This document shows positions 23,381-45,332 of a stretch of DNA of 64,000 nucleotides, one piece after another (position 1 is the first letter of the stretch; each line of letters starts with the position of its first letter). Below the pieces are notes generated by a model. It made no database searches. It saw only the letters and a program-made list of their open reading frames with translations, and had not been told where the DNA came from. The position numbers and the translations under genes were made by a program. The DNA is from Dictyostelium discoideum. Its lineage: Eukaryota. The stretch spans positions 4,448,001 through 4,512,000 of the forward strand of contig CM000153.2 of the NCBI GenBank assembly GCA_000004695.1, given 5' to 3'.

Positions 23381-24341
23381 ATGGAAGGAAGAAGTTTTTT
23401 TAGAGTATGTTTTAAATAAATTAAAAATTAATTAAAATCAATTATAATACCACTAAACTAATTATTATTATTATTCATTATATTAATATATTTATATAGG
23501 GTACATCAGCAGAGCAAGATAATAGATTTGGAGATAAACAAAAAAAGATTTTAAAATCTATGAAATTTCCACCCCATTTCAATACTAAAATTGATATGAC
23601 CAAAGTACATTTACCATCATTCAAAAAATGGATAAATAATCAAGTCATGGATATATTAAAATTTGAAGATGATATAGTTTGTGATTTTATATATGGTTTA
23701 TTAAGTGTAAGTGTTCTTTTTTTTTTTTTTTTTATTTTCTTAGACCAATAAAAAAAAAAATGAAAAATCAAACAAGAATAATTTATTCTCATTTCTTATT
23801 TTTATTTTTTTATTTTTTGTTATTTTTGTTATAATTATTATTGTTAACATAGTTTAAATTAAATAAATGAATAAATGTATTTATTTGTTTATTTTAATTT
23901 TAATTTTAATTTTATAGGAAAGTAATAATCCAGATCCAAAAACCATTCAAATTAATATAACTGGATTTTTAACCAAAGATGCAGCAAGTTTTATGGATAA
24001 ATTGTGGAAACTATTGATAAATGCACAAAATTCAATTGGTGGTATACCAGAGGAATTTTTAAAGGATGCACAATTTGCATCACAAAAAGCAAAAGAAGAA
24101 GAGAATAGGATTAAACAAGCAATTGATAAAACTAAACAAAAGATTGAACAATCCAATTCAACTGTCAATAATTTTAATATTAGAAATCCAACTTATCAAC
24201 CACCATTACATCAGCAACAACCACAACAACCACAACAACAACCAATTAATTATGGTTTACAACAACCACAACCACAAAAAAGATTTACTGATCATCCACC
24301 ACCATACCCACCACCTCAAACAATTGCAAAAACAATAACTC

Positions 24342-24379
<38 letters not shown>

Positions 24380-25325
24380 CCAAATAATGTACAAATACCA
24401 TCACAAGCAAAAATACCACAAAATACAACAACAACAACAACAGCAACAGGTGTAATACCAGTAAAAACAGAGATTAATATTGATCCAAGTTTAGATTTAA
24501 AAGGTTCAAGAAAGAATAGAACTGAATATAAAGATAGAGATAGAGAAAGGGAAAGAGAGAAAGAAAGAGACTATAGAGAAAAGGAAAGAGAAAGAGATAG
24601 AGAAAGAGATAGAGACAGAGAAAGAGATAGAGAAAGGGAAAGAGATTTAAGAGATAGAGAATATAAAACTCGTGATTACTATCATGATAGTAGAGATTAT
24701 CGTGATGACAGAGACCTTTATGATAGTAGAGATTATAGAGATAGTAGAGACTATAGAAGTAGTAGAGACTATCGTGATGATAGAGATTATCGTGATAATA
24801 GGGATTATTATAGCAGCAGTAGCAGTAGCAGTAGCAGCAGTGGTAGAGATAGAGATAGAGACTATAGAGATAGTAGAGACTATAGAAGTAGTAGAGATTA
24901 TCGTGATAGAGATTATCACAGTAGCAGTAGTAGTTTAAGCAGTCGAGATAGAGACCATCGTAGTAGTAGAGATCATCATCATTATTCATCTTCCTCCTCA
25001 TCATCATCATCATCTTTAAGAAGAGATAGAAGTAGATCAAGAACTCCAGAATATCGTGATAGAAGTAAAAGCAGATCAAGAAGCAGAAATAGAAGTAAAA
25101 GTAATGATAGAAAACAAAATAAAAACACAAGTAGAAGTAGATCAAGAAGTAATAGTAATAGTAATAGTGGTGGTAGTCGTAGTAGAAGTAGAGATAGAAA
25201 TAAAATTAGTGATAGATCTCCATCTAGAAGTAGAAGTAATGAAAAAAGGTTTAGAAGTCCTTCTCCCTCAAATAATAATAATAATGAAATTAATAATAAT
25301 AATAATAATAATAATACTAATGGCG

Positions 25326-25387
<62 letters not shown>

Positions 25388-25498
25388 TATAATGAAGATT
25401 CTAATAATGATGAAAATGATAGCGATAGCAGAAAAACTAAAAAACCAAAATCACTAAATATTTATAGTGATGATGATTTTGATGATAAATCAAATTGA
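23381..25498 (+). CDS. SRRM1/SRm160-like PWI-domain splicing coactivator (RS/RD-rich). Exons 23381..23404, 23500..23706, 23918..25498.
   Basis: MEGRSFFR|GTSAEQDNRFGDKQKKILKSMKFPPHFNTKIDMTKVHLPSFKKWINNQVMDILKFEDDIVCDFIYGLLS|ESNNPDPKTIQINITGFLTKDAASFMDKLWKLLINAQNSIGGIPEEFL aligns almost residue-for-residue with the human SRRM1 N-terminus (MDAGFFRGTSAEQDNRFSNKQKKLLKQLKFAECLEKKVDMSKVNLEVIKPWITKRVTEILGFEDDVVIEFIFNQLEVKNPDSKMMQINLTGFL…). The C-terminal 300 aa are RDRDRER/RSRS repeats plus poly-Asn. Donors are GTATGT/GTAAGT. Confidence 0.85.
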
Positions 25499-25627
25499 TA
25501 TACCATAAAAAAAAAAAAAAAAAATAAAAAATAAATCCGATAAAATTTCATCAATATATACTTTTACAATTTTGTATATTTTATTATTATTTATTTATTT
25601 ATCTATTATTTATTATTATTTATTTAT

Positions 25628-26491
25628 TTATAATCTTGAATGTGATCTTTTAATTGTACCTTCGATTAAACCTGATGGTTCTTCAACTGGTTGGAAAACA
25701 GTTTGATTATTTTCAATATTTAAACGTGAGAAATCGAAACCAAAAGCATGTTTATTTGGAAGGGAAAGGTGGACTTGTTCAACTTGTGGTACTTTGGAGA
25801 TGACATCTTTGGCAATGAGGAAGAGGGTCTCTTGAACGGAACGAGAGTAAGTTTGAGCAAAGATATCGAATACAGAGAGTTTGAATTGTTCAAATACTTT
25901 TGAATAATCTACAGACAATGTATTGTAAGTCCAATTTGCAGTAACTACAGTTGCAAAGACTCTATCTTTGGTCTCTTTCAATGAGGTGTATTTGTCACGG
26001 TGGAAACCTTCGAATCCGCTTTGAGTGGTTTTCATAATCAAAAGATCGTCAATACCAGAGACAACCACTGGTGATTTGTCACGAGATGATGTCACTGTAA
26101 CCGAATGGATCTCTCTATCACGTTGGAATGAATGAGCTTGTTCCTTGCCATTGGAGGTCTTAATACGACGCCATTGATTCTCACGCATGACAACCTCAAC
26201 TCCGTTTACCCATGAATAGGTGGCTAAAAAGTGTTTACCCAATAAAATACCATACTCTTCTAAACTCTTGAATTCTTCTTTTTGTGCAATCACATAGACT
26301 GTATTCTTCATGGTATCTGTGGCTACAACTTTACTATTGTCCCCGGTTAAATAGGTCTCTGAGAATTCGGCTCCCCTTAATAATACACGACAATCGAAAT
26401 CAAATACTTTATGATATTCATTTGGTCCTTTAAATACTCTTAATACACGAACTCTTGCTTTACCATATCTATTATCAATTAATGTTGCCAT
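25628..26491 (-). CDS. uox: Urate oxidase (uricase), 287 aa, single exon, peroxisomal (C-terminal SRL = PTS1).
   Basis: MATLIDNRYGKARVRVLRV…, the tunnel-fold uricase T-fold pattern (…YGKARVRV…, VLLRGAEF, TDTMKNTVY, …NSxVVATDTMKN…, …HVHLSLPNKH…). The sequence ends …KRSHSRL*. Confidence 0.9.
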   Translation of the reverse strand: MATLIDNRYGKARVRVLRVFKGPNEYHKVFDFDCRVLLRGAEFSETYLTGDNSKVVATDTMKNTVYVIAQKEEFKSLEEYGILLGKHFLATYSWVNGVEVVMRENQWRRIKTSNGKEQAHSFQRDREIHSVTVTSSRDKSPVVVSGIDDLLIMKTTQSGFEGFHRDKYTSLKETKDRVFATVVTANWTYNTLSVDYSKVFEQFKLSVFDIFAQTYSRSVQETLFLIAKDVISKVPQVEQVHLSLPNKHAFGFDFSRLNIENNQTVFQPVEEPSGLIEGTIKRSHSRL

Positions 26492-27324
26492 TTTTATTTT
26501 ATTTTATTTTATTTTTTTTTATTCTTTTAATAATTTATTTTACTTTGTTTAATTTAATTTTATTTTTTTTTTTTTTTTTTTTTCCAAATTTGGTAATTAA
26601 TTGAAAAAAAAAAAAAAAAAATTAATATTTTATTATTTTATATAAACATTTAAAAATGATAATATAGAATTGAAATTTACCTACAAACTATTTATTTAAA
26701 ATGAAAAAAAAAAAAAAAAAATCAATTTATAAAGTGTTTTTAAAGGAGATATTTTTTTTTTTAATAATATTTTCATTTTTTTTTTTTTTTTTTAATTTTT
26801 TTTTTAATTTTTTTTTTGTAATTTCATATTAAAAAAATCAAAAAGGAATATTTCAAAATTTTATTAATTATTATAACTAAAATTCAAGATAATTTTCGTG
26901 TTGCTACTCTATCGTAAATCAAATTGATTATTATAGAAAAAACAAATTGATGGTGATCTAATTTTTATTCATTGTTGATTATTATTATAAAAATAAATTG
27001 TTAAGAAAATTAAAAATTTTTAAAAAAAAAATAATTAAAAATAAAACAAAATTAAAATAAAAATGAGAAAAAAAAAATGTTTTATTTGACATTTAAAAAA
27101 ATAAAATAAATAAAAAATATTATAAAATAAAATAATAAAATAATGGAGTAAAAAAATAAATTAAAAATAAAATAAAATAAAATAAAAACTCAAAGTTTCT
27201 TTATTGATAAAAAAAAAAAAAAAATAATCAAAATTTAAGGATTATGAAATTGTGAATTTGGTTCCATATCACAAAGAATTTTGAAAAAAAATAAAATATG
27301 GATTAAGAAACTAAATCAGGAAAG

Positions 27325-27388
<64 letters not shown>

Positions 27389-27449
27389 AAATTTAAAATT
27401 TTTTTTTTTCAAAATTTTTTTTTCAATTTTTATTTATTTTTATTTTTAT

Positions 27450-27499
<50 letters not shown>

Positions 27500-28044
27500 A
27501 TAATCATAAACGTACAATTATAATATAAAAACAATCACACATTTTGTAATAGTAGTAACAGTTTTATTTAAATATATAGGTAAAAAAACCGTAACATAAA
27601 GGAAAAGAAAAACATATAATAGGATGTATTTCTTTTTTTTTTTTTTTTTTTTTTCCCAACAACCTTTTTTTTTTATTTAAAAATATTATTTTTTTTTTTT
27701 TTTTTTGTTTATTTTTTTTTTCTTTGTTATATTTTTAAAAATGATCCTTTGGATTATCATTATAATAATAAGAAAGCAAGCAACATTAATTTTTTTTTTT
27801 TTTTTATAATTTTTTTTTTTTTTTTTTGTGGTCATTAAATTGTAAAGTGTGTTGTGTTGTGTTGTTTTTTTGTTTTATTTTTTTTTTTTATTTTTTTTTT
27901 TTATATATTATTTTTATATTTCAATTGTATCACATAGTGGGGAATTAATTGTATATCTTAATATTTTTTTTTATTATATTTTTAATTTTTTTTTTTTTTT
28001 TTTTTTTTTTTCTCCTTCTTTCCTAAACAAATAGAACACTATTA

Positions 28045-28107
<63 letters not shown>

Positions 28108-28217
28108 AAATATTATAGGATTTCTTTTTTTTTTTTTTTTTTTCACCAACCAATTAATACAAATCATATATCAATACGACGAATATAAATTCAAATTTGT
28201 AAAATATAAAAACTAAG

Positions 28218-28557
28218 ATGGCAAGCAAAAAAGGTGATCCAGAAGAACTCTATGTCAGACAAGAGAAGATTGGTAAAGGTTCATTTGGTGAAGTATTCAA
28301 AGGGTATATATCTACTTGGATAAATAATAAATGATTTTATAGTTTATAATGATGATATTGGTGACGATGATAACGATAATAATGTAGTTAAAGAATAGTT
28401 ATAAATGATGATAATGGCAATGATAATAGGAAAATAGTATAAAATAATAAAATAAAAATAATAATGATGGTTTTGATAATTGATTTGAGGATGATAATAC
28501 TGATGATAATACTGATGATGATGATGATAATAATGATGACGATAATGATGATGATAG

Positions 28558-28631
<74 letters not shown>

Positions 28632-28918
28632 GTGATGATATTTAATATTAGAAAGTACTTATTCAAAACAACTAATTCAATAATCCATATATATAGTATC
28701 AATAAAAAAACAAATGAAACAATAGCAATAAAAACAATTGATCTTGAAGATGCAGAGGATGAAATTGAAGATATTCAACAAGAAATCAATGTACTCTCTC
28801 AATGTGAAAGTCCATTTGTAACAAAATATTTTGGTTCATTTTTAAAAGGTTCAAAATTATGGATTATTATGGAATATCTTGCAGGTGGTTCAGTTTTAGA
28901 TTTGGTAAATATCATTTT

Positions 28919-28954
<36 letters not shown>

Positions 28955-29256
28955 TAATAACTAAACTCAATATTAATATTTTTTTTTTTTTTTTTTTTTT
29001 TTTATATATAAAAAAAGATGAAACCAGGTCCATTCGACGAAGGATATATTGCAATTATTTTAAGAGAGTTATTAAAAGGTTTGGAATATTTACATTCAGA
29101 AGGTAAAATTCACAGAGATATTAAAGCTGCAAATGTTTTACTTTCAGCAAGCGGTGATGTTAAATTAGCTGATTTTGGTGTTAGTGGTCAATTAACTGAT
29201 CAAATGACAAAGAGAAATACATTTGTTGGTACCCCATTTTGGATGGCACCTGTAAG

Positions 29257-29316
<60 letters not shown>

Positions 29317-30255
29317 TACAATATTATTATTATTTATAATTTATAGGAAGTTATTAAACAAACTGGATATGATTCAAAAGCTGATATTTGGAGTATGGGT
29401 ATTACAGCATTAGAGATGGCAAAAGGAGAACCACCAAGAGCCGATTTACATCCAATGAGAGCATTATTTTTAATTCCAAAAGATCCACCACCAACACTCG
29501 AAGGTAATTTCTCAAAAGGGTTCAAAGAATTTTGTGCACTTTGTTTGAATAAAGATCCAAATCAAAGACCAACAGCAAAAGATTTATTAAAACATAAATT
29601 TATAAAGGCAGCAAAGAAGACTAGCAGCTTAACTGATCTCATCGAAAGAAGACAAAAATGGTTACAATTGAATGGAAATAATGCTGATGATGAAAATGAT
29701 GATTTAGATAGAGATGCCAAATCAAATGAAGAAGATTTTGGCTGGGAATTCCCAACAATTAAACAAAAATCACCAGTTGCTGTTCAAGAACAACAACAAA
29801 CCCCACAAAAACCAACTGTAGTATCAACTCCAATTAAAGAACAACAACAACAACAACAACCAACACCTGTAACAACACCACAACAACCTGTAACAACAAC
29901 CACCACAACACCAACTACTGAAACCAAAGTAAGATCATTATCAAATAGTTCACAAACCACACCAGTTAAAACTACTGTTGCTGCAACCACTGCACCTGCA
30001 ACTACACCAGCTTCAAATGCACCAACTTCAACAACACCAAATGGTGCCGCTGTCACTCAACAACAAGCACCAAGAGCCTCTGCTCTTACCTCTGTCATTT
30101 ATCCAGTTTTATCGAAATTACTTAAAAATACATCTGATGAAAATGTTATCAATGCTTTGGCTCAACTTAAAATGGCATTTGATAATGCTGAAAAAGCAAA
30201 GCCTGGTATCACTCACAGTTTAATCGCACAAATCATTGAAACCCTTAAAAGATAA
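28218..30255 (+). CDS. svkA: STE20-family (GCK-III/MST3-4-YSK1-like) Ser/Thr protein kinase, 478 aa, consistent with severin kinase. Exons 28218..28303, 28696..28903, 29018..29251, 29347..30255.
   Basis: [29 protein letters not shown]|[69 protein letters not shown]|[78 protein letters not shown]|[30 protein letters not shown]… The GxGxxG, VAIK, HRDIK, DFG and APE motifs are all present. The C-terminus has a Thr/Pro/Gln-rich linker and a helical tail. Intron 1 holds a pure (GAT)n tract and intron 3 an (ATT)n tract. Confidence 0.85.
28480..28640. repeat. Pure (GAT)n trinucleotide tract of about 45 units inside svkA intron 1.
   Basis: gatgatgatgat… from ~28500 to 28635, flanked by degenerate (GAT/GAC/AAT) units. 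Confidence 0.9.
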
Positions 30256-30727
30256 AACTAAAAATAATTATATATCAAAAAAAAAAAAAAGAAAAAAAAA
30301 AAAAAAAAAAAAATCATTGTTTATCTCTTCCTTTCATATATGAAAATACTCAAAATAATATTAATAATTTTAATAATAATAATAAATAATAAATAAATAA
30401 ATAATAATAATAATAATAATAACAATAATAATAATAATAATAATAAAAAAAGAAAAAAAAAAAAAAGAAAAAAAAAAAAAAAAAGAAAAAAAAAGAAAAA
30501 AAAAAAAATCAATAAATAATAATATAGTAACAATAATAATAATAATAACAACAATAATTAAAACAGTAAGGTGGTTTTTTTTATTTGTTTTTCATTTTTT
30601 ATTTGTAAAAAAAAAAATATGGCACCAAACAGATAAATAATGGTTTTGGTTGATCAAAAACTATTCTTTGAACGAATTTTTTGAAAAAAAGATATTTTCC
30701 AATTTTTTTAATTTTTTTTCTGATCAC

Positions 30728-30758
<31 letters not shown>

Positions 30759-30818
30759 TGATTTTTTTAATTTTTTTTTTTTTTTATTTATTATTCTTGT
30801 TGATGTTGTATTATTAGT

Positions 30819-30852
<34 letters not shown>

Positions 30853-30855
<3 letters not shown>

Positions 30856-31988
30856 AATTCATTTGTAATTAGAAACGGCTTTGGTTTAGTTAGAACTTTC
30901 AATACTAGATTATTCACCACTTCAAGTATTTATTAATTTTATAAAAAAAAAAAAAAAAAAAAAAAAAATAAAAAAAATAAAAAAAGCTAATTCCTATTGC
31001 TTTTGTTTCTTTTTGTAAATAAATTCTTTTTTTTTTTTTTTTTTTTTAATGTTTAGCTCAAAATTTAGAGGGTGAATTAAAGACTATTTTAGGACAAGCA
31101 AAAGTATCAAAATTACAAGAAAAATTAAAGTTGGACCCAAGAAGTAAAATCACTTTCAATGATTTTAAAGGTATTGCTAAAGAAGTTGGAATTGAAGAAA
31201 AAGAAATTAACTCTGTTTCAAATGCACTCGCTCAATCTGGTTCAATCATCTACTTACCAAATAGTTTAAATGAAAATTTGAAGACTAGTGTATTCACAAA
31301 ACCAGCTCATATTTACCAATCATTAGAACAGTAAGTATAAAAAAGGAAACCTATTTTTATTTTTGTTTTCAATGTTTTATTTTTTAAAAGTTCTTGTTGA
31401 ATTATTATAATAGATACTAGATTTTATAAAATAAATATCTAATATTTTTTTATTTTTTTTTTTTTTTTAAAATTTTTTTTTTATTTATTATTTATTTAAA
31501 TAAAAAGTATTTTAGATATTGAAAATAAAGGTGTTGGTTTAAATAAATTAATTGAATCAAAGAAATCAGAAATTAATAGTTTAAGACAAAAAATTCAACC
31601 ATTAGAAGAAAAAAAACAAGTTATTGATAGAAAAGCACATAGAAGAGCAACTGCAATTATTTGGACAGGTTTAGGTTATTGCTTTGCTCAAGCTGCTATT
31701 TTAGCTAGATTAACATGGTGGGATTTATCATGGGATATCATTGAACCAGTATCTTACTTTTTAACATTTGGTAGTGTTTTAATTGGTTACACCTATTTTA
31801 CAATGACTAAAACTGAATTCACATATGAAGCCTTAAATCATAGATTATTTTCAAAGAGACAAGATAAACTCTTTAAAAGAAATAACTTCCCAAAGGAAGA
31901 TTATGAAAATTTAGTTCAAGCAATCGATAAAAAAGAAAAAGAATTAAAAGAATTAGAACTTGCCACTAAATATGATCATACTCATTAA
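30853..31988 (+). CDS. mcu: Mitochondrial calcium uniporter pore subunit (MCU), 275 aa. Exons 30853..30925, 31057..31330, 31508..31988.
   Basis: N-terminal mitochondrial presequence MNSFVIRNGFGLVRTFNTRLFTTS. A coiled-coil region, then two TM helices flanking …ILARLTWWDLSWDIIEPVSYFLTFGSVLIGYTYF… (MCU selectivity-filter loop, D-x-x-E = DIIE). A C-terminal coiled coil. Donors are GTATTT/GTAAGT and acceptors (T)nAG, with consistent phases. Confidence 0.88.
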
Positions 31989-32268
31989 TATTCATACATA
32001 TTCTCTTTTTTTTTTTTTAAAAAATAAAATAAAATAAGAAAGTAATGATAAAATAAAACAACAATAAATAAAAATTAATAAATAAAATAAAACCAGTTTT
32101 TTTTTTTTTTTTTTTTTATAATACTAATAATACAACATCAACAAGAATAATCTGATAAATAATATCAATATTATACTTTAAAGTTTATTGTGTTTGATTT
32201 AGAAAAAAAAAAAAAAAAAAAATAAATTTTAAATTGTAAAATTAGCAGAGTTTATTTGTAGTATTAAT

Positions 32269-34353
32269 TCAATTGTTAACAATGAATTCATTATAAGCTA
32301 TAATTTCAAAAGTTCTTGGACCTTGTGGTAAATAAGGGAATGTAATATTGAACCCTTTTGGAATTGGACCAGTTGCAGTTAAACTCTTTTTGATTTGAAA
32401 TTGTTCATTAATAGTTATAATTGATTTTGCCCAATTCTTTGGATTGTCTAATGTGAATGATGATGTAAAGAAACCAAGATTGTTACCATTTAAAAACAAT
32501 GATTTGGTAACATTGTCATAGGATAAATTAAATTCAAGGTTTGTACAATTTTGTAAATTATTAATATCTAAATTTGTAAATTTATTTCCACTAAAGATAG
32601 CACTAGTCGATGGTTGCAAATAATTACAAACAACACATGATGGTGCTTGACCACCAATTAAATTATTACTAATGTCAAAATCAATTGAACACCAAGTTTC
32701 ATCGATTTGTCCAGTTAATAAATTATCACTAAGATATAAAGAAATATCTTTTGAAAATAAATTTGATGGGAAACTTGTTGGAATAATACCACCCATTTTG
32801 TTATTTCTTAAATAAAGGATACTTAGTTTTTTATTGAATAAATTGAAATTTATTTCATTAAAGTTACCATTTTCAAACTTGCTATAATTGGGTTTTTTTT
32901 TTTTTTGATATAAAAAAAAAAAGATATTAAAAAATGTCCACTGAAATTGAATTTTTAAAGGTTAAATACTTACAAAAAGGTTAATGTTGATGGTAAAGCA
33001 GAGAATGGGAATTCACCATTTACATTGAAAATATTTCCTGCATTTGGAATATATCTTTTTTTTTTTTTTTTTCCAAAAGTTATTAATTAGTAAAAAATTA
33101 TCTGGATCGAAAGTAATGATCGAGGACTACTTACATAGAAACATCTAAACTTTCATTATAGTTGGATAAATCAATAAGGCCAAGTGGAGTGTCAATTTGG
33201 TAATTAATAGCACTATTTTTATAATTAAATTAAATTAGAATAAAGATAAGTATCAATATTATAATTTTTTAAAAAACTTACAAGCCAGTGTTTTTATTAG
33301 TACTAATTGGAATTGAAGCCAATGCCACTGGGAATGGGTAAACAACAGAATTTGATGATGTTAAAGAGAATGAAGTTACATTTGCATATGTTGAAAAAGC
33401 AGAGAATGAGTTTGAATCTGTGCCCGGTAAAAGGGTAAGTTGTCTATTGTTTTTATTATAAATAATTAGTAAATATTAATTATTGTATTGTATAAAAAAA
33501 CAAAAAAAAAAAAGAAAAACATACAATAATTCCATTAGAATATTATTCATTGATGGGATGAAATGGGTGTATGCAAAGAAGTATTCAAATGATGTCGACG
33601 TTTCAAGTAAATCATTGATATAATTGATTTTATATTTTGGATTTAAAGTTTGGGTGATGAGAGAAAACTTTTTAACATTTAAAAGACTTGAGAAATAAAT
33701 GTTTAATGGGCCAGAAAGATAAACCTTTGTACTTAAAACTGGAATTGTAATTGATTTCCCAACACCAATATCAACATCAAATATCGAAGAATTACCATTA
33801 ATTAAAGAAATCGATTTTAATGATTGAGGGAATAATCCAATTAAAAAGTTTTTAGAAACTTTGAATCCATCGATATTTCTAAAGAGAGATTTTAAATATT
33901 AATTTTGTTAGTATATATATATATATATATATAATTTTTTTTATTCTAATTTTAATATCTTACAATGTATTAATTGATGAAAAGCATTGAAAATCAGATG
34001 GTGAAATTAAATTTTTATTTGTTTGGGTCGCTCTAATATTTACAACATTTTGTGCATCACAATTAACCAAAGCATTCATAGGAGTTAATGGTGAATTACA
34101 AAAGTCGTAAAGAAGAGTGTTTGAATTATAATAAAATTCCTGGTTGACATTAGAAATTTTATTAAAGAAATTGAAAGTACATTGATCTGTAAAATTTAAA
34201 TTTAAGAATAAAAATTAGATAAAAAAAAAAAAAAAAAAAATTAAAATAAAATAAAATTAAATACTTACATTCTGATGAAGAAAGGGAAAATACATCCCCA
34301 ATAAAAAATAACAGAACTGACAAAACAATAGAGAAAAGTTTGACTAAATTCAT
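32269..34353 (-). CDS. Family member B of the LRR receptor-like family: an intact 531-codon ORF encoding signal peptide plus LRRs only (no EGF/TM part). Exons on the minus strand: 34269..34353, 33964..34186, 33525..33878, 33282..33443, 33135..33212, 32974..33054, 32269..32881.
   Basis: MNLVKLFSIVLSVLLFFIGDVFSLSSSE|YQCTFNFFNKISNVNQ…QCFSSINTL|LNIDGFKVSKNFLIGLFPQSLKSISLINGNSSIFDV…|LQLTLLPGTDSNSF…|FAINYQIDTPLGLIDLSNYNESLDVSM|IYIPNAGNIFNVNGEFPFSALPSTLTFL|FKFENGNFNEINF…LTGQIDETWCSIDFDISNNLIGGQAPSCVVCNY…GPIPKGFNITFPYLPQGPRTFEIIAYNEFIVNN*. Exon sizes and phases (85/223/354/162/78/81) parallel the full-length paralogs. The ORF stops exactly where the paralogs continue …ITAYNEFIPQIDSVIRY…. Confidence 0.65.
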
Positions 34354-34556
34354 TTTTTTTTTTTTTTTTTTTTTTTTACTCAATAAATGAAATAAAAAAC
34401 TTTAAGAACAAAAAACAGAAAAAAAAAATTTTCAAAAAAAATAGAAAAAAAAAAAAAAAAAAAAAATACCCTTTATTTCGGAATAAAAAAAAAAAATTCA
34501 AGAAAAAATTTTAAAGAGACGAACCATCTAATCTCTCAAAAGGAATGAAAACATTT

Positions 34557-37205
34557 TTATTGATGTGATTTCTTTTGAAATACTTTAAAATTAAATACGA
34601 AAATAAGCATTAATATTATAATTGGGATTATTATTACTAAAATTATGGAGAAATGGTTTGTTACTGCTACTAAATTGATAGATATCACTCCCACCATTTT
34701 TACTTGAATCACTATTATTACTTTCATTACTACTATCACTACTATTATTACTATTACTATTACTATTACTATCTATTACTATTACTATTGCTATTACTAC
34801 TACTATTACTACTATTACTACTATTACTACAAATTTTATTTTGATTATACAAAGGATAATAATTACCCTCCATTTATGATTGTTTTGGATTACTAACAAT
34901 ATAGTGTTATTATTATTAATTGTACATATTATATCTGATGGTGGATAGCATTTAATTTCAAGTTGAGTATTTGAAATGATATCGCATGGTTTATTATTGA
35001 TGGTTACTGATAAATCTATAAATATTACCGAACCAACCATTTAATATTATAGAATACCAAGTTCAGTTTGTTGTAGTTGTTGTGAATTAACTTGATGATT
35101 TGGTGTTAAACACATTGAATCAATCCATTGATTTGTACAATTACACTGACCATTGATTTGATTACAAATACCTTGATTACATCCTAATCCATTATTACAT
35201 TCACATACACCATTTATATAATTACAGAAACTACCATTTTCATCATTACAATCTGATGAACATTTCAATGATCTTAATTCACATTGATAACCTCTCCATT
35301 CATTTGAAAAACAATCACAAACACCCTTCACATAACTATATTCACCACTATTTTTAGCACAATTTGGAATTGGACAATTACTACCATTACAAATTTGATT
35401 CAATTTGAAATTAAAACTATTCGATACATTCATAACTTGAACTAAACAATTAATTTCTTTATTATTATTTACAATACCACCACTATTACTACCTACTTGT
35501 ATCACTGTTACCTTATTATTGATGATTTTATTTGAATTATAAAGATAACATTGAATTTGATTGAAATTACTTGATAATACTAAACAAGGTTCGTTTGAGA
35601 TTAAAACATTGATAACCGTATTATTATATGCAAAGTTTTTACCATTGATAATGAAATAATCTGAATATCTAATAACTGAATCAATTTGTGGTATGAATTC
35701 ATTATAAGCTGTAATTTCAAAAGTTCTTGGACCTTGAGGTAAATATGGAAATGTAATATTGAATCCTTTTGGCATTGGTTGAGTTGAAAAGATATTATTT
35801 TTCAATTGGAATGCTCTATTTGGTGTTATAATAGCAGTTGCAAAATTTTTATCAAACAATGCATGATTGGCGATTTACCACTTATTAAATTATTTCTAAT
35901 GTTACTAACATCAAAATTAACTTCACACCACTATCATCCATTTCTCCAGTAATTTCATTATTATATAAATAATATTCACTATGGGAAATTTAACTTGGTA
36001 ATGGAGTTTTAATACTATTGTTTTGAAATTTTATATATTTAATATTTGTCAATTTTTCATTAATATTTTTAAATTTACCTAAATTTCCATTCTTAAATTC
36101 ACTCTATAAAAAAGATTTAATCATTAATAACTTTTAAATGATTTTAATACTTTTACAATTGGTTGAATATATTTACAGTAAAAACAAATTTTTTGGTAAT
36201 CCAGAAAATGGAAAATCACCATCAATATTGAATAATTTACCTGAACTATTAAATTAATAGAAAAAAAGTTATAAAAGGAGTTAATAAATATCTTGTTTCA
36301 TTTGGGGTAGGATCTCATTCAATACTTTAAATAACCTTTTAATTTAACCAAAACTTACATTGATACCTCATTTTCATAATTATTTGATAAATTAATAAAG
36401 GTAGGAGGCGTATCTATTTGATAAGTAATTGTACTTAATATATTGTTTTTTTTTTAAAAAAAGTTAAAATAATTGTAATAATAATAAAAAATAATGGAGA
36501 AAATAAATAAAAAATATTTACAGACCAGTATTTTTATTTCAGCTGGTATTTCACTTAAAGCAATAGGGAAGGGATATATTTGAGTTTTGTCTGAAGGTGT
36601 TATTGAAAATGCAATTACATTTGAAAATTTTGAAAAAATTGAAAATGAATATATATCAGCTCCACCTAAAAGTGTGAGTTGACTTTTTTTTATTAAAAAA
36701 TGTTTTTTTTTTAAATAATTATTAATATTTATAACATTGGGTAAAAAAAAAAAAAAAAAAAAAAATATATATATAAAAAATAATAAAAAAAAAAAAAATT
36801 TGTAAATACAAACAAAATAGATAAATTAATGTTTTTCACTGATGGTATATTATGAGAATATATGTTATAAATATTGAAAATGGCAGTCGTGGTATCATTC
36901 AAGTCATTTATAAAATTTATTTTATATTTTGGTTTTTGAGTTTGGTTTTTCAACTGAAATTTTTGAACATTTAAAAAACTTGAGAAATATATATTTAGTG
37001 GTCCAGAAAGGTACAATAATAAACTTAATGATTCTACTTGTATAATTTTATTGAACCCAATTTCCACATCAAATAATGATGAATTACCAATAAATAATGA
37101 CATACATGTTAAAGTATTTGGAAATTTTCCTATTAAAAAATTATTTTCAACTTTAAATAAATCTATATTACTGATTTATATTATTTACATATTAGATTTA
37201 TGTAT

Positions 37206-37241
<36 letters not shown>

Positions 37242-38110
37242 TTTTTTTTTTTTTTCAAAAACACTTACATAGAATTTAATGATGAAAAACATTGAAAATC
37301 AATTGGAGATGAACCATTCTAATACCTTCAACAGCTGTTGAACATTATCACAATAATTTATATAAATGATTTATTAGTTAAATAAAATTAGTTAAAAATA
37401 CTCGCCTAAATTATTGCTCATGTTTTATCAGAATCTTGTAATAGAAAAATAAAATAAAATTAAATAAATAAATATATATAAATAAAAATAAAGTAATAAG
37501 TTGATGTTATCGACAATATCTAAAATTTATTATACATGTTTTTTTATTATTGAAAATTTTTACTTATTATATTTGAGATTTAAAATTATGTTTATGAGTT
37601 TTTCAATCGACATTAAAAACTCACCACGTGACTTTTTCCCACCTAGGTGAGAAAAGTCTAATTATATAAACATAAATTATTTTAGTTTGTGAGCGAGATT
37701 GTATCTAATTTAAAATCTTGATAAAACATAATTTTATTGTAACAATTTAATTATTACATAATTATATTACAACAAACAGCTCCCTTGTTATTACATATGA
37801 AATGGTTATATGGATCAAGTGCTACAGCACTACAAAAACTATATCCATTGAATGTTGTATCCAATGGGTGCTCTTTAGAAGCCTGATTAATTTTATTAAA
37901 TAAATGTAATGTACAATTATCTTTTTACAAATGAAAAGGATTGTTGAGATTATTAATTTTCTACTCAAAAAAAAAAAAAAAAAAAAAAAAATTAATTACA
38001 AACTTACACTCTGATTCAATGAGTTGATTTTGTGAATTAACTAAATTTTTATTTTGACATATTATAAATAAAAGTAAAAGAATAATACTATTTAAAACTC
38101 CCATGTTCAT
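34557..38110 (-). pseudogene. Decayed paralog of the LRR/EGF/TM family (closest to the copy at 39639..43127). Its 3' exon is frameshifted and its LRR exons are degenerate.
   Basis: An exon-1-like start MNMGVLNSIILLLLFIICQNKNLVNSQNQLIESE|GTAAGT lies at 38110..38026. The 3'-exon homologue 35047..35859 matches 40200..41010 nearly base-for-base, but a 1-bp deletion at ~35040-35047 (…gaacttggtattctaTAAtattaaatgg… versus …ctattaatattaaatgg…) creates a stop (QTELGIL*). The LRR portion around 35860-35960 reads …EMDDSGVKLILMLVTLEII** with multiple frameshifts relative to …EMDDSWCSITFDISNNLIGG…. Confidence 0.75.
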
Positions 38111-38595
38111 TATAAAAAAAAAAAAAAATAAATAAATAAAAATAAAAAAAAAAATAAAAAAAATAATAACAATAAATAGATTTTTTACAAAACCATAAAA
38201 AAACCAAAAATAAAAAAAAAAAAAAAAAAAACCAGATCGATAGTTTTGATATTTTTACAATTTTTTTAAATTAATGTGGCAAATAAAAATTTTATTTTAT
38301 TTTATTTTATTTTGTTTTTTTTTTAAAAAATGTTAATATTCTTTTTTTTTTTTTTTTTGGGTGAACCCCTAAATTATTGTTGGCAGATATTTAGTATTTT
38401 ATTATAATTTTTTTTTTTTTTTTTTTTTAAATCCCTATCATTTAGATTTAAAACACACATTTTATTTTAAAATTTACTTTTTATAAATAAAATTTTTTTT
38501 TTATTATTTTTCATTATTATTATTATTATTATTATTATAATTATTATTATCTTATTATTATTATTATTTATTATTATTATTACAATTTCAATGCA

Positions 38596-39559
38596 TTAAA
38601 TGATATAATGAAAATAATTATTGATATCCATTGTTGATTCATAGTATTTTTCATTTTCTTTCCATTCCAATACATTAAATGATTTCAATTCTCGAAGTTG
38701 TTGTTGAGAAATTGATGGCTGATTAATTTTTTTAATTTTAAAATTATTGCCTAATCCCAATAACATTAAGTCCGATTTACTAACTCTACCAATTGTTATT
38801 TTTTCATTTGCAATTGACATCAAAGAAATATTGGATAAACTTACAAACGGTAATTTTTTTTTTATTATTAAAATTTAAAAATCATATTAATTTAAAATTA
38901 ATACAATTAAGTAATACAAGTAGATTTATATGCACTTGAAAATAATTTTAATTGTAGATTGGATACACTTGAAAATAATTTTATTAATATTAAAAAAGGT
39001 ATTATTTTACAATTATTATAAATATTTGTTTTTTACTTTATTTATTTATATATAATTTATTTACTGGATTTATTTTACTATCTATTCATTTATAGCAATT
39101 GCAAATGAAAAAATAACAATTAGTAGAGTTAGTAAATCGGACTTAATGTTATTGGGATTAGGCAATAATTTTAAAATTAAAAAAATTAATCAGCCATCAA
39201 TTTCTCAACAACAACTTCAAGAATAAAAATCATTTTATGTATTCGAATGTAAAGAAAATGAAAAATACTATAAATCCACAATGGATATCAATAATTATTT
39301 TCATTATATCATTGATCAAGAAATTGAAAATATTGAAAATATATACTTGTCTAATATTTCAAATCAACATACATATATTATGTTGAAAATCTTTCAAATA
39401 TCGAATTTGATAAAGTTTATCTTGGTTTTGAAGTTAAATCAACATAGCCGAATTAATTGCAATTACAAGAAAATCAAACGGTTGCACCCAATTCTCCAGG
39501 TTTCAACAAATTTTATTGATAATTATATATTTTCATTTGGGATAATGAAGGTAATGTAA
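38596..39559. repeat. Large inverted repeat. The left arm 38596-38830 and right arm 39102-39330 are about 93% identical in opposite orientation, separated by a ~270-bp AT-rich spacer. The right arm extends to ~39559.
   Basis: The left arm (minus strand) encodes MMSIANEKITIGRVSKSDLMLLGLGNNFKIKKINQPSISQQQLRELKSFNVLEWKENEKYYESTMDINNYFHYII*. The right arm (plus strand) encodes …IANEKITISRVSKSDLMLLGLGNNFKIKKINQPSISQQQLQE* …STMDINNYFHYIIDQEIENIENIYLSNISNQ…. These are two differently degenerated copies of the same coding fragment. Confidence 0.8.
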
Positions 39560-39638
39560 ATTGGGGTTTAAATTAAAAAAAAAAAAAAAGTTAAAAATAA
39601 AAACGTTTAAAACAAAATAATAGAGATGTGTATTATTT

Positions 39639-43127
<3,489 letters not shown>

Positions 43128-43400: not shown

Positions 43401-45332
43401 TTAAAATTTAATATCTGTTTCTTCCAACTCTGTGAAATTTTTTTTATCTTTAAATATTTTTCTAGTTATTACTTTGCATTGATTACTTTTAATAACCAAA
43501 ACTAAAAGGATTATTAAAATTACAGATGGAATTAAAATTGATATTATAACTAAAATATTTTTTCTGGAAAATTTTGGATTTTGAGCATCCTCCTTATTTT
43601 CACCATTAATATCATTGCCACTACTATTACTACTATTACTACTACTACTACTACTACCATTATTAATACACACGCTAATACCATCTAAAGGTGTTGGGTT
43701 ATAAAATCCACTCCAATGAACATTGTTTTGAACAACTGATAATTCCAGATTATTATTATTATATTGGTAACAATAGATGTCTGATGGATAACATTCGACC
43801 ATATAGTCAGAATCTGCAACAATGTCACATTCTATTTGATTTACTTTAATAGTTAGATCATTTCGAAAAATTTCACTACCAAACCAACCATTTAATATTA
43901 ATAGATTACCAAGAGCACCTCGTTTAATTTCTTGTGAGGTAACCATAGTATTAGGTATATTACAATTTGAAGCAGTCCATTGAATAGTACAATTACATTG
44001 ACCAAATAAATAATCACAAATTCCACCATTACTACAACCTAATCCTTCATTACATAGTCTACCACTACAATCATCGAATATTCTATTTTCATTACATTCG
44101 CATTTACCATTAATATTATTACAAATACCACCACCATCATTATTACTACAATCTGATGAGCATTTCAATGGTTTTTGTTCACATTGATAACCTCTCCATT
44201 TATTGGAAAAACAATCACAGACTCCACTCTCTTTATTATATACACCTCCATTTTTTATATTACATACCGGAATTGGACAATTAATACCATTACAAATTTG
44301 ATTCAATTTGAAATTAAAACTATTCGATACATTCATAACTTGAACTAAACAATTAATTTCAATACTACTACTACTACTGCTGCTATCACTGTTACTATTA
44401 TTATTGATGATTTTATTTGAATTATAAAGATAACATTGAATTTGATTGAAATTACTTGATAATACTAAACAAAGTTCGTTTGAGATTAAAACATTGATAA
44501 CCGTATTATTATATGCAAAGTATTTACCATTGATAATGAAATAATCTGAATATCTAATAACTGAATCAATTTGTGGTATGAATTCATTATAAGCTGTAAT
44601 TTCAAAAGTTCTTGAACCTTGTGGTAAATATGGAAATGTAATATTGAATCCTTTTGGCATTGGACCAGTTACTCTATTATTCTTTGTAATTTCAAATAAT
44701 GTATTTTCAATTTTAATATTTTCTGCCCAAATATTTGGATTATCTAATTTGAATGATATACCAAAACCAAGATCTCTACCATATAGCATCAATGATTTAG
44801 TTTGATTATCATATGATAGATTTAGTTCAATAGTAGTACAATCTTCTAAATGGTTAATATCTAAATTTGTGAATCTATTACCATTAACAATTGCACTAGT
44901 AATTGGATTAAGGTAATGACAAACTACACATGATGGTGCTTTACCACCAATTAAATTATTACTAATATCGAAAGTTATTGAACACCAACTATCATCCATT
45001 TCACCTGTTAATTTATTATCATTTAAATATAACTCAAGTAAAACATCCATTGATTTAATAAAAGATGATGTTGGTAATTTACTGGTTAAACCATTAAATG
45101 ATAAATCTATTATATTTGTTTTCTCTTTGAAAATATTAAAATTGATTACACTTATATTTCCATTTTTCAATTGACTTTTGAAAAAAAAAAAATTAGTATA
45201 CTATTATTATATTTATCTTGTGTTTTAATTATTATTATTTTAAAATAGTTACAATGTATTTAAATTTGGTGGTAACACTGAAAATGGAAAGTTACCATTA
45301 ATATTGAATAAATTACCTGCCTTTGCAATATA

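Follow-up and report, generated by a model that had tools for sequence, protein, structure and literature searches.

What is the inverted repeat that lies among the members of a gene array on chromosome 4 of Dictyostelium discoideum AX4? The arms look like protein-coding DNA. The first-pass annotation described them as two degenerate copies of an unknown coding fragment, possibly left by a foldback-type transposable element or by an inverted segmental duplication, and potentially able to mediate rearrangements in the array. To answer the question, it is necessary to identify the coding fragment, to establish how one copy of it came to face the other, and to ask whether the resulting structure has a function.

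Setting and geometry of the inverted repeat

The region analyzed is a 64-kb stretch of AX4 chromosome 4 with a G+C content of 22% (hereinafter, the window; positions are counted from its first letter). A Pfam scan shows that the neighbors of the inverted repeat are minus-strand members of an array of LRR/TIG/EGF (ComC-like) genes. Within the window, DDB_G0286433 is encoded exactly by the ORF 35047-35859, and the C-terminus of DDB_G0286431 is an exact match to the ORF 32269-32796. Mapping of the full-length gene model P0018 places the array units as follows.

34181-32281, minus strand: array unit A
37309-34870, minus strand: array unit B
43127-39639, minus strand: array unit C
46610-43401, minus strand: array unit D
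50581-47367, minus strand: array unit E

The inverted repeat occupies the spacer that separates units B and C, so that its reported location between family members is correct. Searched with blastn, the remaining spacers of the array yield no paralogous "empty site" but low-complexity matches only.

A repeat search of positions 37500-40500 delineates two arms, 38599-38827 and 39085-39313, of 229 nt each, which are 94% complementary (216 of 229 positions by exact count) and are separated by 257 nt. The runner-up in the same interval is an 83-nt, 71% inverted repeat of low-complexity A/T sequence. Gapped local alignment of the reverse-complemented left arm with the right arm yields a single ungapped block (38827..38601 against 39085..39311). 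The truly homologous, exon-derived core extends from 38599 to 38816 on the minus strand and from 39096 to 39313 on the plus strand, with 209 of 218 nucleotides identical (95.9%, 9 mismatches), and leaves a spacer of 279 nt (38817-39095). The initial estimates of ~235 bp, ~93% identity and a ~270-bp spacer are thus close to the measured values (229 nt, 94%, 257-279 nt), and the reverse-complement alignment holds.

Translation confirms that the two arms are mutated differently. The right copy reads ...SISQQQLQE*, with a nonsense mutation TTA>TAA at 39224-39226 directly after QQQLQE, and continues beyond the stop as ...HYIIDQEIENIENIYLSNISN. The left copy is open on the minus strand to ...NNYFHYII* and ends, after HYII, at the limit of homology beside an (ATT)n tract. 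The claim that the fragment matches none of the neighboring genes is also borne out: in the 64-kb window, blastn identifies only the cross-arm match and low-complexity matches, and the best non-self tblastx hit, which would indicate a protein-level relative, has an E-value of 0.24.

The parent family and the anatomy of the locus

A protein search started with a peptide rebuilt from both arms and the downstream frames identifies DDB_G0287051 (258 aa), which is encoded on the same 5.45-Mb chromosome as the inverted repeat, as the best match (E-value 2.5e-48, 99% of the query). The coding fragment that had been listed as unknown is thus a degraded paralog of DDB_G0287051, a member of a small, uncharacterized, Dictyostelium-only family. 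Among 1.84 billion cluster representatives, an exhaustive scan with HMMER detects only five relatives of the family, all of which originate from the D. discoideum complex or from D. firmibasis; AX4 itself encodes only one protein relative of the fragment. A Pfam scan of the rebuilt peptide and of P0001-P0004, P0016 and P0017 gives no signal above noise, a search of PDB sequences with P0001 and a PADLOC scan for the parent family return no match, and a literature search for DDB_G0287051 finds no mention of it.

The family shows a conserved pattern, G-x-x-D-Y-[LV]-L ... E-[VI]-K ... Q-G-x-x-E-L. The PD-(D/E)xK nuclease-like fold has an alpha-beta-beta-beta-alpha-beta core with the catalytic residues D...(D/E)xK. 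For this lead on the parent family, the AlphaFold2 model built from a 6-sequence alignment has a mean pLDDT of 38.7, which is too poor for a fold search.

In other strains, the home locus of the family is located between an Snf7 gene and a GH65 gene, and in L001 it consists of a tandem pair of family genes. All DNA comparisons with the parent gene were made with the strain-2 home genes rather than with the AX4 DDB_G0287051 DNA. At the site of the inverted repeat, the assemblies compared are AX4, strain 2 (GCA_054859355.1, L004), strain 3 (GCA_054859385.1, L005) and D. cf. discoideum (GCA_054859205.1, L003).

The segment 38819-39372 of the window is collinear with home gene A (L001 10396-10958), with 88% identity over 565 nt, and this collinear stretch spans exon 1, both introns, a mini-exon and the main exon. 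For the left arm, a match to this home-gene exon exists in the reverse orientation only (89.5%). The locus can accordingly be partitioned into the following features.

38416-38476, plus strand: remnant of the 5' flank of the duplicated gene (L003 9632-9688, 87%, E-value 1e-12)
38477-38598, plus strand: (ATT)n microsatellite and adjoining A/T-rich DNA (TRF, alignment)
38599-38816, minus strand: left arm, a partial main-exon copy (initial 218 nt) in inverted orientation (209/218 against 39096-39313)
38817-38849, plus strand: exon-1 remnant (..IKEILDKLTN), from alignment to L001, with a GTAAT donor at 38850
38850-38901, plus strand: intron 1, matched by alignment to its counterpart in home gene A (L001)
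38902-38998, plus strand: degenerate mini-exon (..QVDLYALENNFNCRLDTLENNFINIKK), from alignment and TRF
38999-39095, plus strand: intron 2 (GTATTATT...TTTATAG), from alignment
39096-39313, plus strand: right arm, initial 218 nt of the pseudogene's main exon (repeat search, alignment)
39314-39566, plus strand: remaining main exon, heavily damaged (alignment; tblastn pieces in three frames)

The spacer therefore corresponds to the gene's own 5' part and the right arm to the beginning of its main exon, so that only the left arm is extra. Of the description as two degenerate copies, the inverted duplication stands, but the copies are not equivalent: the right one is the main exon of the pseudogene and the left one is an additional partial copy. 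The left arm is lodged between the (ATT)n tract and the exon-1 remnant, at the end of the latter from which the ATG was lost. Its open frame on the minus strand reads (A)IANEKITIGRVSKSDLMLLGLGNNFKIKKINQPSISQQQLRELKSFNVLEWKENEKYYESTMDINNYFHYII*, and tblastn of P0001 aligns with it in frame -2 at 84.5% over 71 aa.

The sequence to the left of the inverted segment also derives from the gene. The L003 segment 9622-9976 is collinear with the upstream region of the home gene (L001 9943-10285); the upstream exon that follows the 5' flank is present in L003 and in the home gene and is deleted in AX4 and strain 2. The (ATT)n tract (38501-38582 according to TRF, period 3, 27 copies) has its counterpart in the (ATT)n sequence of the 5' intron/UTR in the home gene and in the L003 copy, and 38494-38582 is 91% identical to L001 10231-10318. 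The right end of this (ATT)n part, at about 38598/38599, is the outer junction of the inverted segment.

On the right side, the damage is extensive. Exon 1 of AX4 lacks the ATG and the first ~7 codons, a part that strain 2 retains in a degenerate form, with ATTG replacing ATG. The mini-exon contains a tandem repeat (TRF, 38920-38983, period 33, 1.9 copies); an equivalent mini-exon is present in the gene models P0002 and P0003 and is skipped in the AX4 model P0001. The main exon has lost ~103 nt at 39372/39373, with a frameshift, ~25 nt at 39443/39444 and 1 nt at 39481/39482, and, with an AX4-specific deletion of ~190 nt at 39566, the terminal ~45 codons and the 3' UTR are gone as well.

Taken together, the homology to the parent that runs through the introns, the 5' flank and the (ATT)n tract, and the disabling lesions (the lost ATG, the stop, the frameshifting deletions and the 3' truncation), make it very probable that a member of the DDB_G0287051 family survives here as a non-functional, unprocessed pseudogene with introns, which lost its 5' end to a local inverted partial copy. 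It resembles other unprocessed pseudogenes in its homology to the parent across exons, introns and flanks and in the loss of the start and of the 5' exon, as well as in its nonsense codon, frameshifts, deletions, neutral-like substitutions and partial or whole loss in some strains. It differs in the extra inverted copy of part of the main exon at its 5' end, which confers the foldback look. A retrocopy, that is, a processed pseudogene, was considered and is ruled out because both introns are retained with GT..AG ends.

Orthologous sites and the origin of the inverted arm

In strain 2, which is syntenic with AX4 in this region, an svkA-like kinase and MCU precede the array. Identity to the window, over collinear sequence, is about 90-93%, and the inverted repeat is present at the corresponding position. 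The left copy of strain 2 extends through approximately the last 37-40 nt of intron 2, in reverse complement, and no more than about 10 nt separate it from an exon 1 that is complete but degenerate, at a place where AX4 lacks 60 nt. Strain 2 also retains the main-exon segments deleted from AX4, along with the end of the ORF and the 3' UTR. It has lesions of its own: the left arm is short of 79 nt and the right arm of 23, 3 and 9 nt, and part of the mini-exon is deleted.

D. cf. discoideum (L003) has a nearly intact copy, collinear with the home gene, whose reading frame contains a single frameshift (tblastn) and which has no inverted arm. Its right flank matches window positions 39568-40062 (89%) and its left flank matches 38416-38476 (87%, E-value 1e-12); 5' of the ATG, collinearity with the home gene extends over the upstream exon, the (ATT)n tract and AACTATATAAAATG. 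The copies adjacent to the array share the sequence AIANEKITISRV.KSDL, where the home genes have AIV[DN]EKIIISKV.KSEL, and these common residues, being different from those of the home genes, support the orthology of the array-adjacent copies. Given that L003 shares both flanks yet is collinear and lacks the inverted arm, the inverted repeat is the derived state, a local rearrangement of a paralog that was formerly collinear and probably functional.

In strain 3, only the left arm survives: ~1 kb is gone, including the spacer, the right arm and the remaining pseudogene. A T-rich direct repeat of 13-14 nt, TTATTTTTT(C/T)ATTT, marks the junction; in strain 2 this direct repeat is present at both breakpoints, and the loss in strain 3 is an ordinary direct-repeat (microhomology) deletion. 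Instability induced by a hairpin was considered as its cause and is rejected in view of the T-rich direct-repeat breakpoints, one of which is located ~750 nt past the right arm. There is no sign of the suggested mediation of array rearrangements by the inverted repeat: AX4 and strain 2 are collinear, and the change in strain 3 is this direct-repeat deletion.

In two strains, the gene models P0018 and P0019 fuse the neighboring LRR/TIG/EGF gene to the left arm as a terminal exon, and automated fusion models of this type deserve caution. Of little weight for biology at large, the locus is a well-resolved case of a dispersed gene duplicate dying, with successive states represented in the four assemblies: a collinear gene, an inverted repeat, its derivatives that bear private deletions, and a single remaining arm.

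These comparisons establish a sequence of events. Prior to the diversification of the D. discoideum complex, a home gene was copied together with its upstream region, its introns and its 3' end, and the copy came to lie beside the 3' end of unit C. The inversion event took place in the common ancestor of AX4 and the two other D. discoideum assemblies. About 40 nt of intron 2 and at least 218 nt of the main exon were copied in reverse, and the reversed copy landed between the ATG and the (ATT)n tract 5' of it. The normal 5' end was thereby removed, and the upstream exon disappeared. Thereafter, the arms and their surroundings decayed independently in each lineage. We infer that this rearrangement was the event that inactivated the gene.

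The left arm was most likely made in one templated event, in which ~35 nt of the 5' UTR were replaced, as opposed to a simple addition. In one version, replication would switch to the opposite strand ~290 nt downstream, copy ~260 nt and return. In the other, a break near the ATG would be followed by snap-back synthesis primed in intron 2 and by microhomology joining on the (ATT)n side. The same event, or a separate one, may have eliminated the upstream exon. Microhomology at the junctions amounts to AAT at the outer one and TTAA or less at the inner one; these overlaps are no evidence for a specific mechanism because they are too short in DNA with 22% GC.

Templated inverted insertions arise through replication template-switch mutations and through synthesis-dependent microhomology-mediated end joining. 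The present case resembles them in that a nearby segment is reverse-complemented and a short stretch is replaced, with the source within a few hundred nucleotides and with junction microhomology of at most a few nucleotides. Unlike the typical cases, the tract here is at least 260 nt, far above the usual length, and the mechanism is deduced from the anatomy of the locus only. An origin of the left arm from cDNA, suggested by the coincidence of the AX4 arm edge with the intron/exon boundary, was rejected: the strain-2 copy contains intron sequence, and the AX4 edge results from the secondary 60-nt deletion.

An alternative, which appears unlikely, is that two complete gene copies once stood head to head and that the left one was later trimmed by deletions. 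Tandem pairs do form at the home locus of the family, deletions are frequent at the site of the inverted repeat, and the distal end of the left arm, which adjoins the microsatellite, is known from AX4 only owing to the 79-nt deletion in strain 2, so that a longer copy could once have existed. Nevertheless, in strain 2, the least-deleted state, the left copy starts inside intron 2, ~10 nt from the start codon of the right copy, and its other end is the point where the L003 5' UTR leaves the (ATT)n tract, with the copy taking the place of ~35 nt of UTR. The head-to-head arrangement would call for at least two more deletions with coincident ends, compared with the single event of a templated insertion. 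The latter thus remains the preferred explanation, and the proposed inverted segmental duplication is to be amended accordingly: an inverted duplication did occur, but it was local and partial and most likely a templated insertion.

Decay of the arms and alternative readings of the repeat

With the home genes as outgroups, a comparison of four arms, two each from AX4 and strain 2, yields a star-like pattern, with 3-5 private substitutions per arm and no site that groups orthologous arms. At two sites located 16 nt apart, both AX4 arms have the same derived base, a pattern that fits most simply a single short gene-conversion tract. Shared derived bases in both AX4 arms would also be expected from selection for pairing. 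Among the differences between the AX4 arms, 7 of 9 change a residue or create a stop, although the counts are small.

Between AX4 and strain 2, identity is 91.5% in the left arm, 95.5% in the right arm, about 90% in the introns and 89.6% in the remaining exon. The identity of the exon remnants (89.6-95.5%) is similar to that of the introns (90%), which, together with the differences between the AX4 arms, indicates evolution without coding constraint, again with small counts. The right arm is somewhat better conserved between the strains (95.5%) than its flanks (about 90%). Lineage-specific deletions of 60, 65 and 30 nt are found inside the arms when AX4 is compared with strain 2. The test for a stem kept by selection across lineages goes against it, with one-sided arm deletions, the loss of the right arm in strain 3 and no clear excess of conservation. 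All these patterns are consistent with neutrality, with the arms seemingly decaying about as fast as the adjacent non-coding DNA; judging by the evolutionary pattern only, the inverted repeat probably has no present function, and its capacity to form a hairpin is then a by-product.

The possibility to be weighed against this conclusion is a hairpin-RNA (endo-siRNA or proto-miRNA) locus, with a duplex of ~218 bp and a 279-nt loop, that would produce siRNAs against DDB_G0287051 in trans. As anticipated in the first-pass annotation, the region can fold back on itself: the computed structure is one long hairpin with an energy of -322.6 kcal/mol (z = -31), although such an energy is trivially expected of any inverted repeat. 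Perfect duplex runs between the AX4 arms reach 96 bp, and perfect runs of 26-44 nt are common to the arms and the strain-2 home genes, so that targeting in trans is physically possible. The two sites with a derived base common to both AX4 arms would fit such a role, as would the P0018 and P0019 gene models, which, if based on RNA, imply minus-strand transcription into the repeat. There is also a precedent within D. discoideum, a Skipper-derived long hairpin with a ~320-bp stem and a ~900-nt loop that is reported as the likely source of cloned small RNAs (PMC2175303).

Against these points stands the history of the arms. They are not clearly above the adjacent introns in conservation; each lineage has one-sided deletions, in which parts of one arm only are lost (in strain 2, 79 nt on the left and 23, 3 and 9 nt on the right); strain 3 lacks the right arm and therefore cannot form the hairpin; and the inverted arm is absent in D. 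cf. discoideum. Nor does the locus match an Rfam family: a scan of 37000-41000 at E <= 1 gives only a chance-level match to a bacterial sRNA at 40147-40222, outside the inverted repeat. What the locus does possess is the structural prerequisite only, an inverted repeat that is derived from a protein-coding gene and still matches it. Inverted duplication is the model proposed for siRNA and young-miRNA loci (PMC3237417), and the present repeat is akin to such loci in that it comprises part of a protein-coding gene, forms a near-perfect long hairpin and has perfect runs of at least 21 nt with the parent; it departs from them in being known from sequence, with no clear selection on the stem and with an arm lost in one strain. 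On balance, a hairpin-RNA locus is highly improbable.

If it were one nonetheless, minus-strand read-through from the neighboring array gene or local transcription would feed siRNAs that dampen DDB_G0287051 in AX4-type strains. The locus would then document, for Amoebozoa, the birth of a small-RNA gene from an inverted duplication, caught while still polymorphic: AX4 and strain 2 have the hairpin, and strain 3 and D. cf. discoideum lack it. This polymorphism also provides an inexpensive natural experiment on whether the RNAi pathway of Dictyostelium draws on long genomic hairpins.

The remaining reading, a remnant of a foldback-type or other DNA transposon with the arms as terminal inverted repeats, can be dismissed for practical purposes: apart from the gross shape, inverted arms of ~220 nt around a spacer of ~270 nt, and the uncharacterized, taxonomically narrow parent family, the locus has the features of a host gene, the arms being an exon of a host-type, intron-bearing gene and the spacer the 5' part of the same gene. 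Two inverted arms around a central spacer are indeed what FB-type elements display, but here the arms are unique, single-copy exon sequence and the right one is continuous with the gene; because it passes unbroken into the remaining exon, it is not an element terminus. Foldback arms contain tandem subrepeats, and TRF detects none inside 38599-38816 or 39096-39313. No further copy is found in the 64-kb window, AX4 has a single protein relative, and in five loci from the four assemblies the arm matches only the parent genes and the orthologous site. Reading of the flanks by eye in AX4 and strain 2 reveals no target-site duplication beside the arms. Finally, the orthologous site in D. cf. discoideum is occupied by the gene without the inverted arm, that is, by a collinear gene and not by an empty target site.

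The parent family and its mini-exon

Proteins of the DDB_G0287051-like family, the parent family of the pseudogene that carries the inverted repeat, are represented by only five clusters among 1.84 billion proteins, and all five representatives come from the D. discoideum complex or D. firmibasis. Alignment of the AX4 protein (P0001) with two other family members, P0016 and P0017, reveals a conserved core of the form G-x-x-D-Y-[LV]-L ... E-[VI]-K ... Q-G-x-x-E-L. This core resembles the PD-(D/E)xK nuclease motif, a likeness that comes from the sequence pattern, the AlphaFold model being poor (pLDDT 38.7). The features of the pseudogene relevant here are:

38920-38983, 33-nt tandem repeat of the mini-exon (found also in the mini-exon of gene A of the tandem pair at the home locus L001 and at the N-terminus of P0016)
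39096-39566, region encoding the degraded equivalent of these family proteins
39162 and 39178, two derived sites in the right arm (left-arm partners 38750 and 38734, respectively)

The mini-exon repeat encodes the motif (N)RLDTLENNF, and its copy number differs between family members: 1.9 copies in the window, fewer in the strain-2 pseudogene and in gene B of L001, and more in P0016. The mini-exon is included in the models of family members P0002 and P0003 but skipped in the AX4 model P0001.

Shared derived bases in the AX4 arms

At two sites 16 nt apart (coordinates hand-converted from alignment columns 203 and 219), both AX4 arms have a derived G and T, where the two arms of strain 2 and the two parent genes at the home locus all keep A and C. 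A short tract of gene conversion between the arms is the best explanation for these shared bases; in formal terms, they also amount to a double change that preserved pairing.

A gene model that incorporates the left arm, and its strain-2 counterpart

Two automated gene models from the strain assemblies correspond to unit C together with the left arm:

L005 6001-9639, P0018, strain GCA_054859385.1
L004 1-2769, P0019, strain GCA_054859355.1 (strain 2)
Window 39639-43127 (minus strand) plus 38599-38816 (minus strand), equivalent region, unit C and left arm

The last 41 residues of P0018, RVSKSDLMLLGLENNFKTKKINQPSIFQQQLQELKSFTVFEL, are the translation of the inverted left arm spliced onto the unit C model, and this tail takes the place of the transmembrane tail encoded by the AX4 ORF. 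P0019 clusters with P0018 at 90%; the reading of the C-terminal residues covers P0018. P0018 is probably an annotation chimera.

The ComC-like array in AX4 and in related assemblies

Four units of the AX4 array are considered here, all on the minus strand:

34591-35040 and 35047-35859, two ORFs of unit B
39639-41252, long open C-terminal exon of unit C
43401-45170, long open C-terminal exon of unit D
47367-49160, long open C-terminal exon of unit E

The C-terminal exons of units C, D and E are open over 537-597 aa, and a protein database search with these units returned no protein more than 93% identical; the only database entries from this array are DDB_G0286431 and DDB_G0286433. In unit B, the coding sequence is split across the two ORFs, with no recognisable N-terminal exon. 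In AX4, several members of the array may carry a pseudogene annotation or be absent from the protein set. The Rfam model of the bacterial dfrA-dnaX sRNA matches weakly at 40147-40222 (plus strand), scoring 32.8 bits where the gathering score is 48.6 (E = 0.59). This match falls within the poly-Asn-coding part of unit C and is almost certainly due to chance.

Over window positions 24000-42500, GCA_054859355.1 and GCA_054859385.1, both labelled D. discoideum, are ~89-95% identical to AX4, coding parts included. Such divergence is greater than expected for conspecific isolates; these assemblies may represent a cryptic sister lineage.

Near the orthologous site in D. cf. discoideum (L003), the array consists of short fragments, one 145-nt piece and two unit C pieces:

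L003 9343-9486, ComC-like array fragment
L003 11415-11903, ComC-like array fragment
L003 12014-12536, ComC-like array fragment

On either side of the fragments lie genes for a mitochondrial carrier and a citrate synthase, and the AX4 window contains no match to either gene. In the D. cf. discoideum lineage, the array is mostly deleted or relocated.
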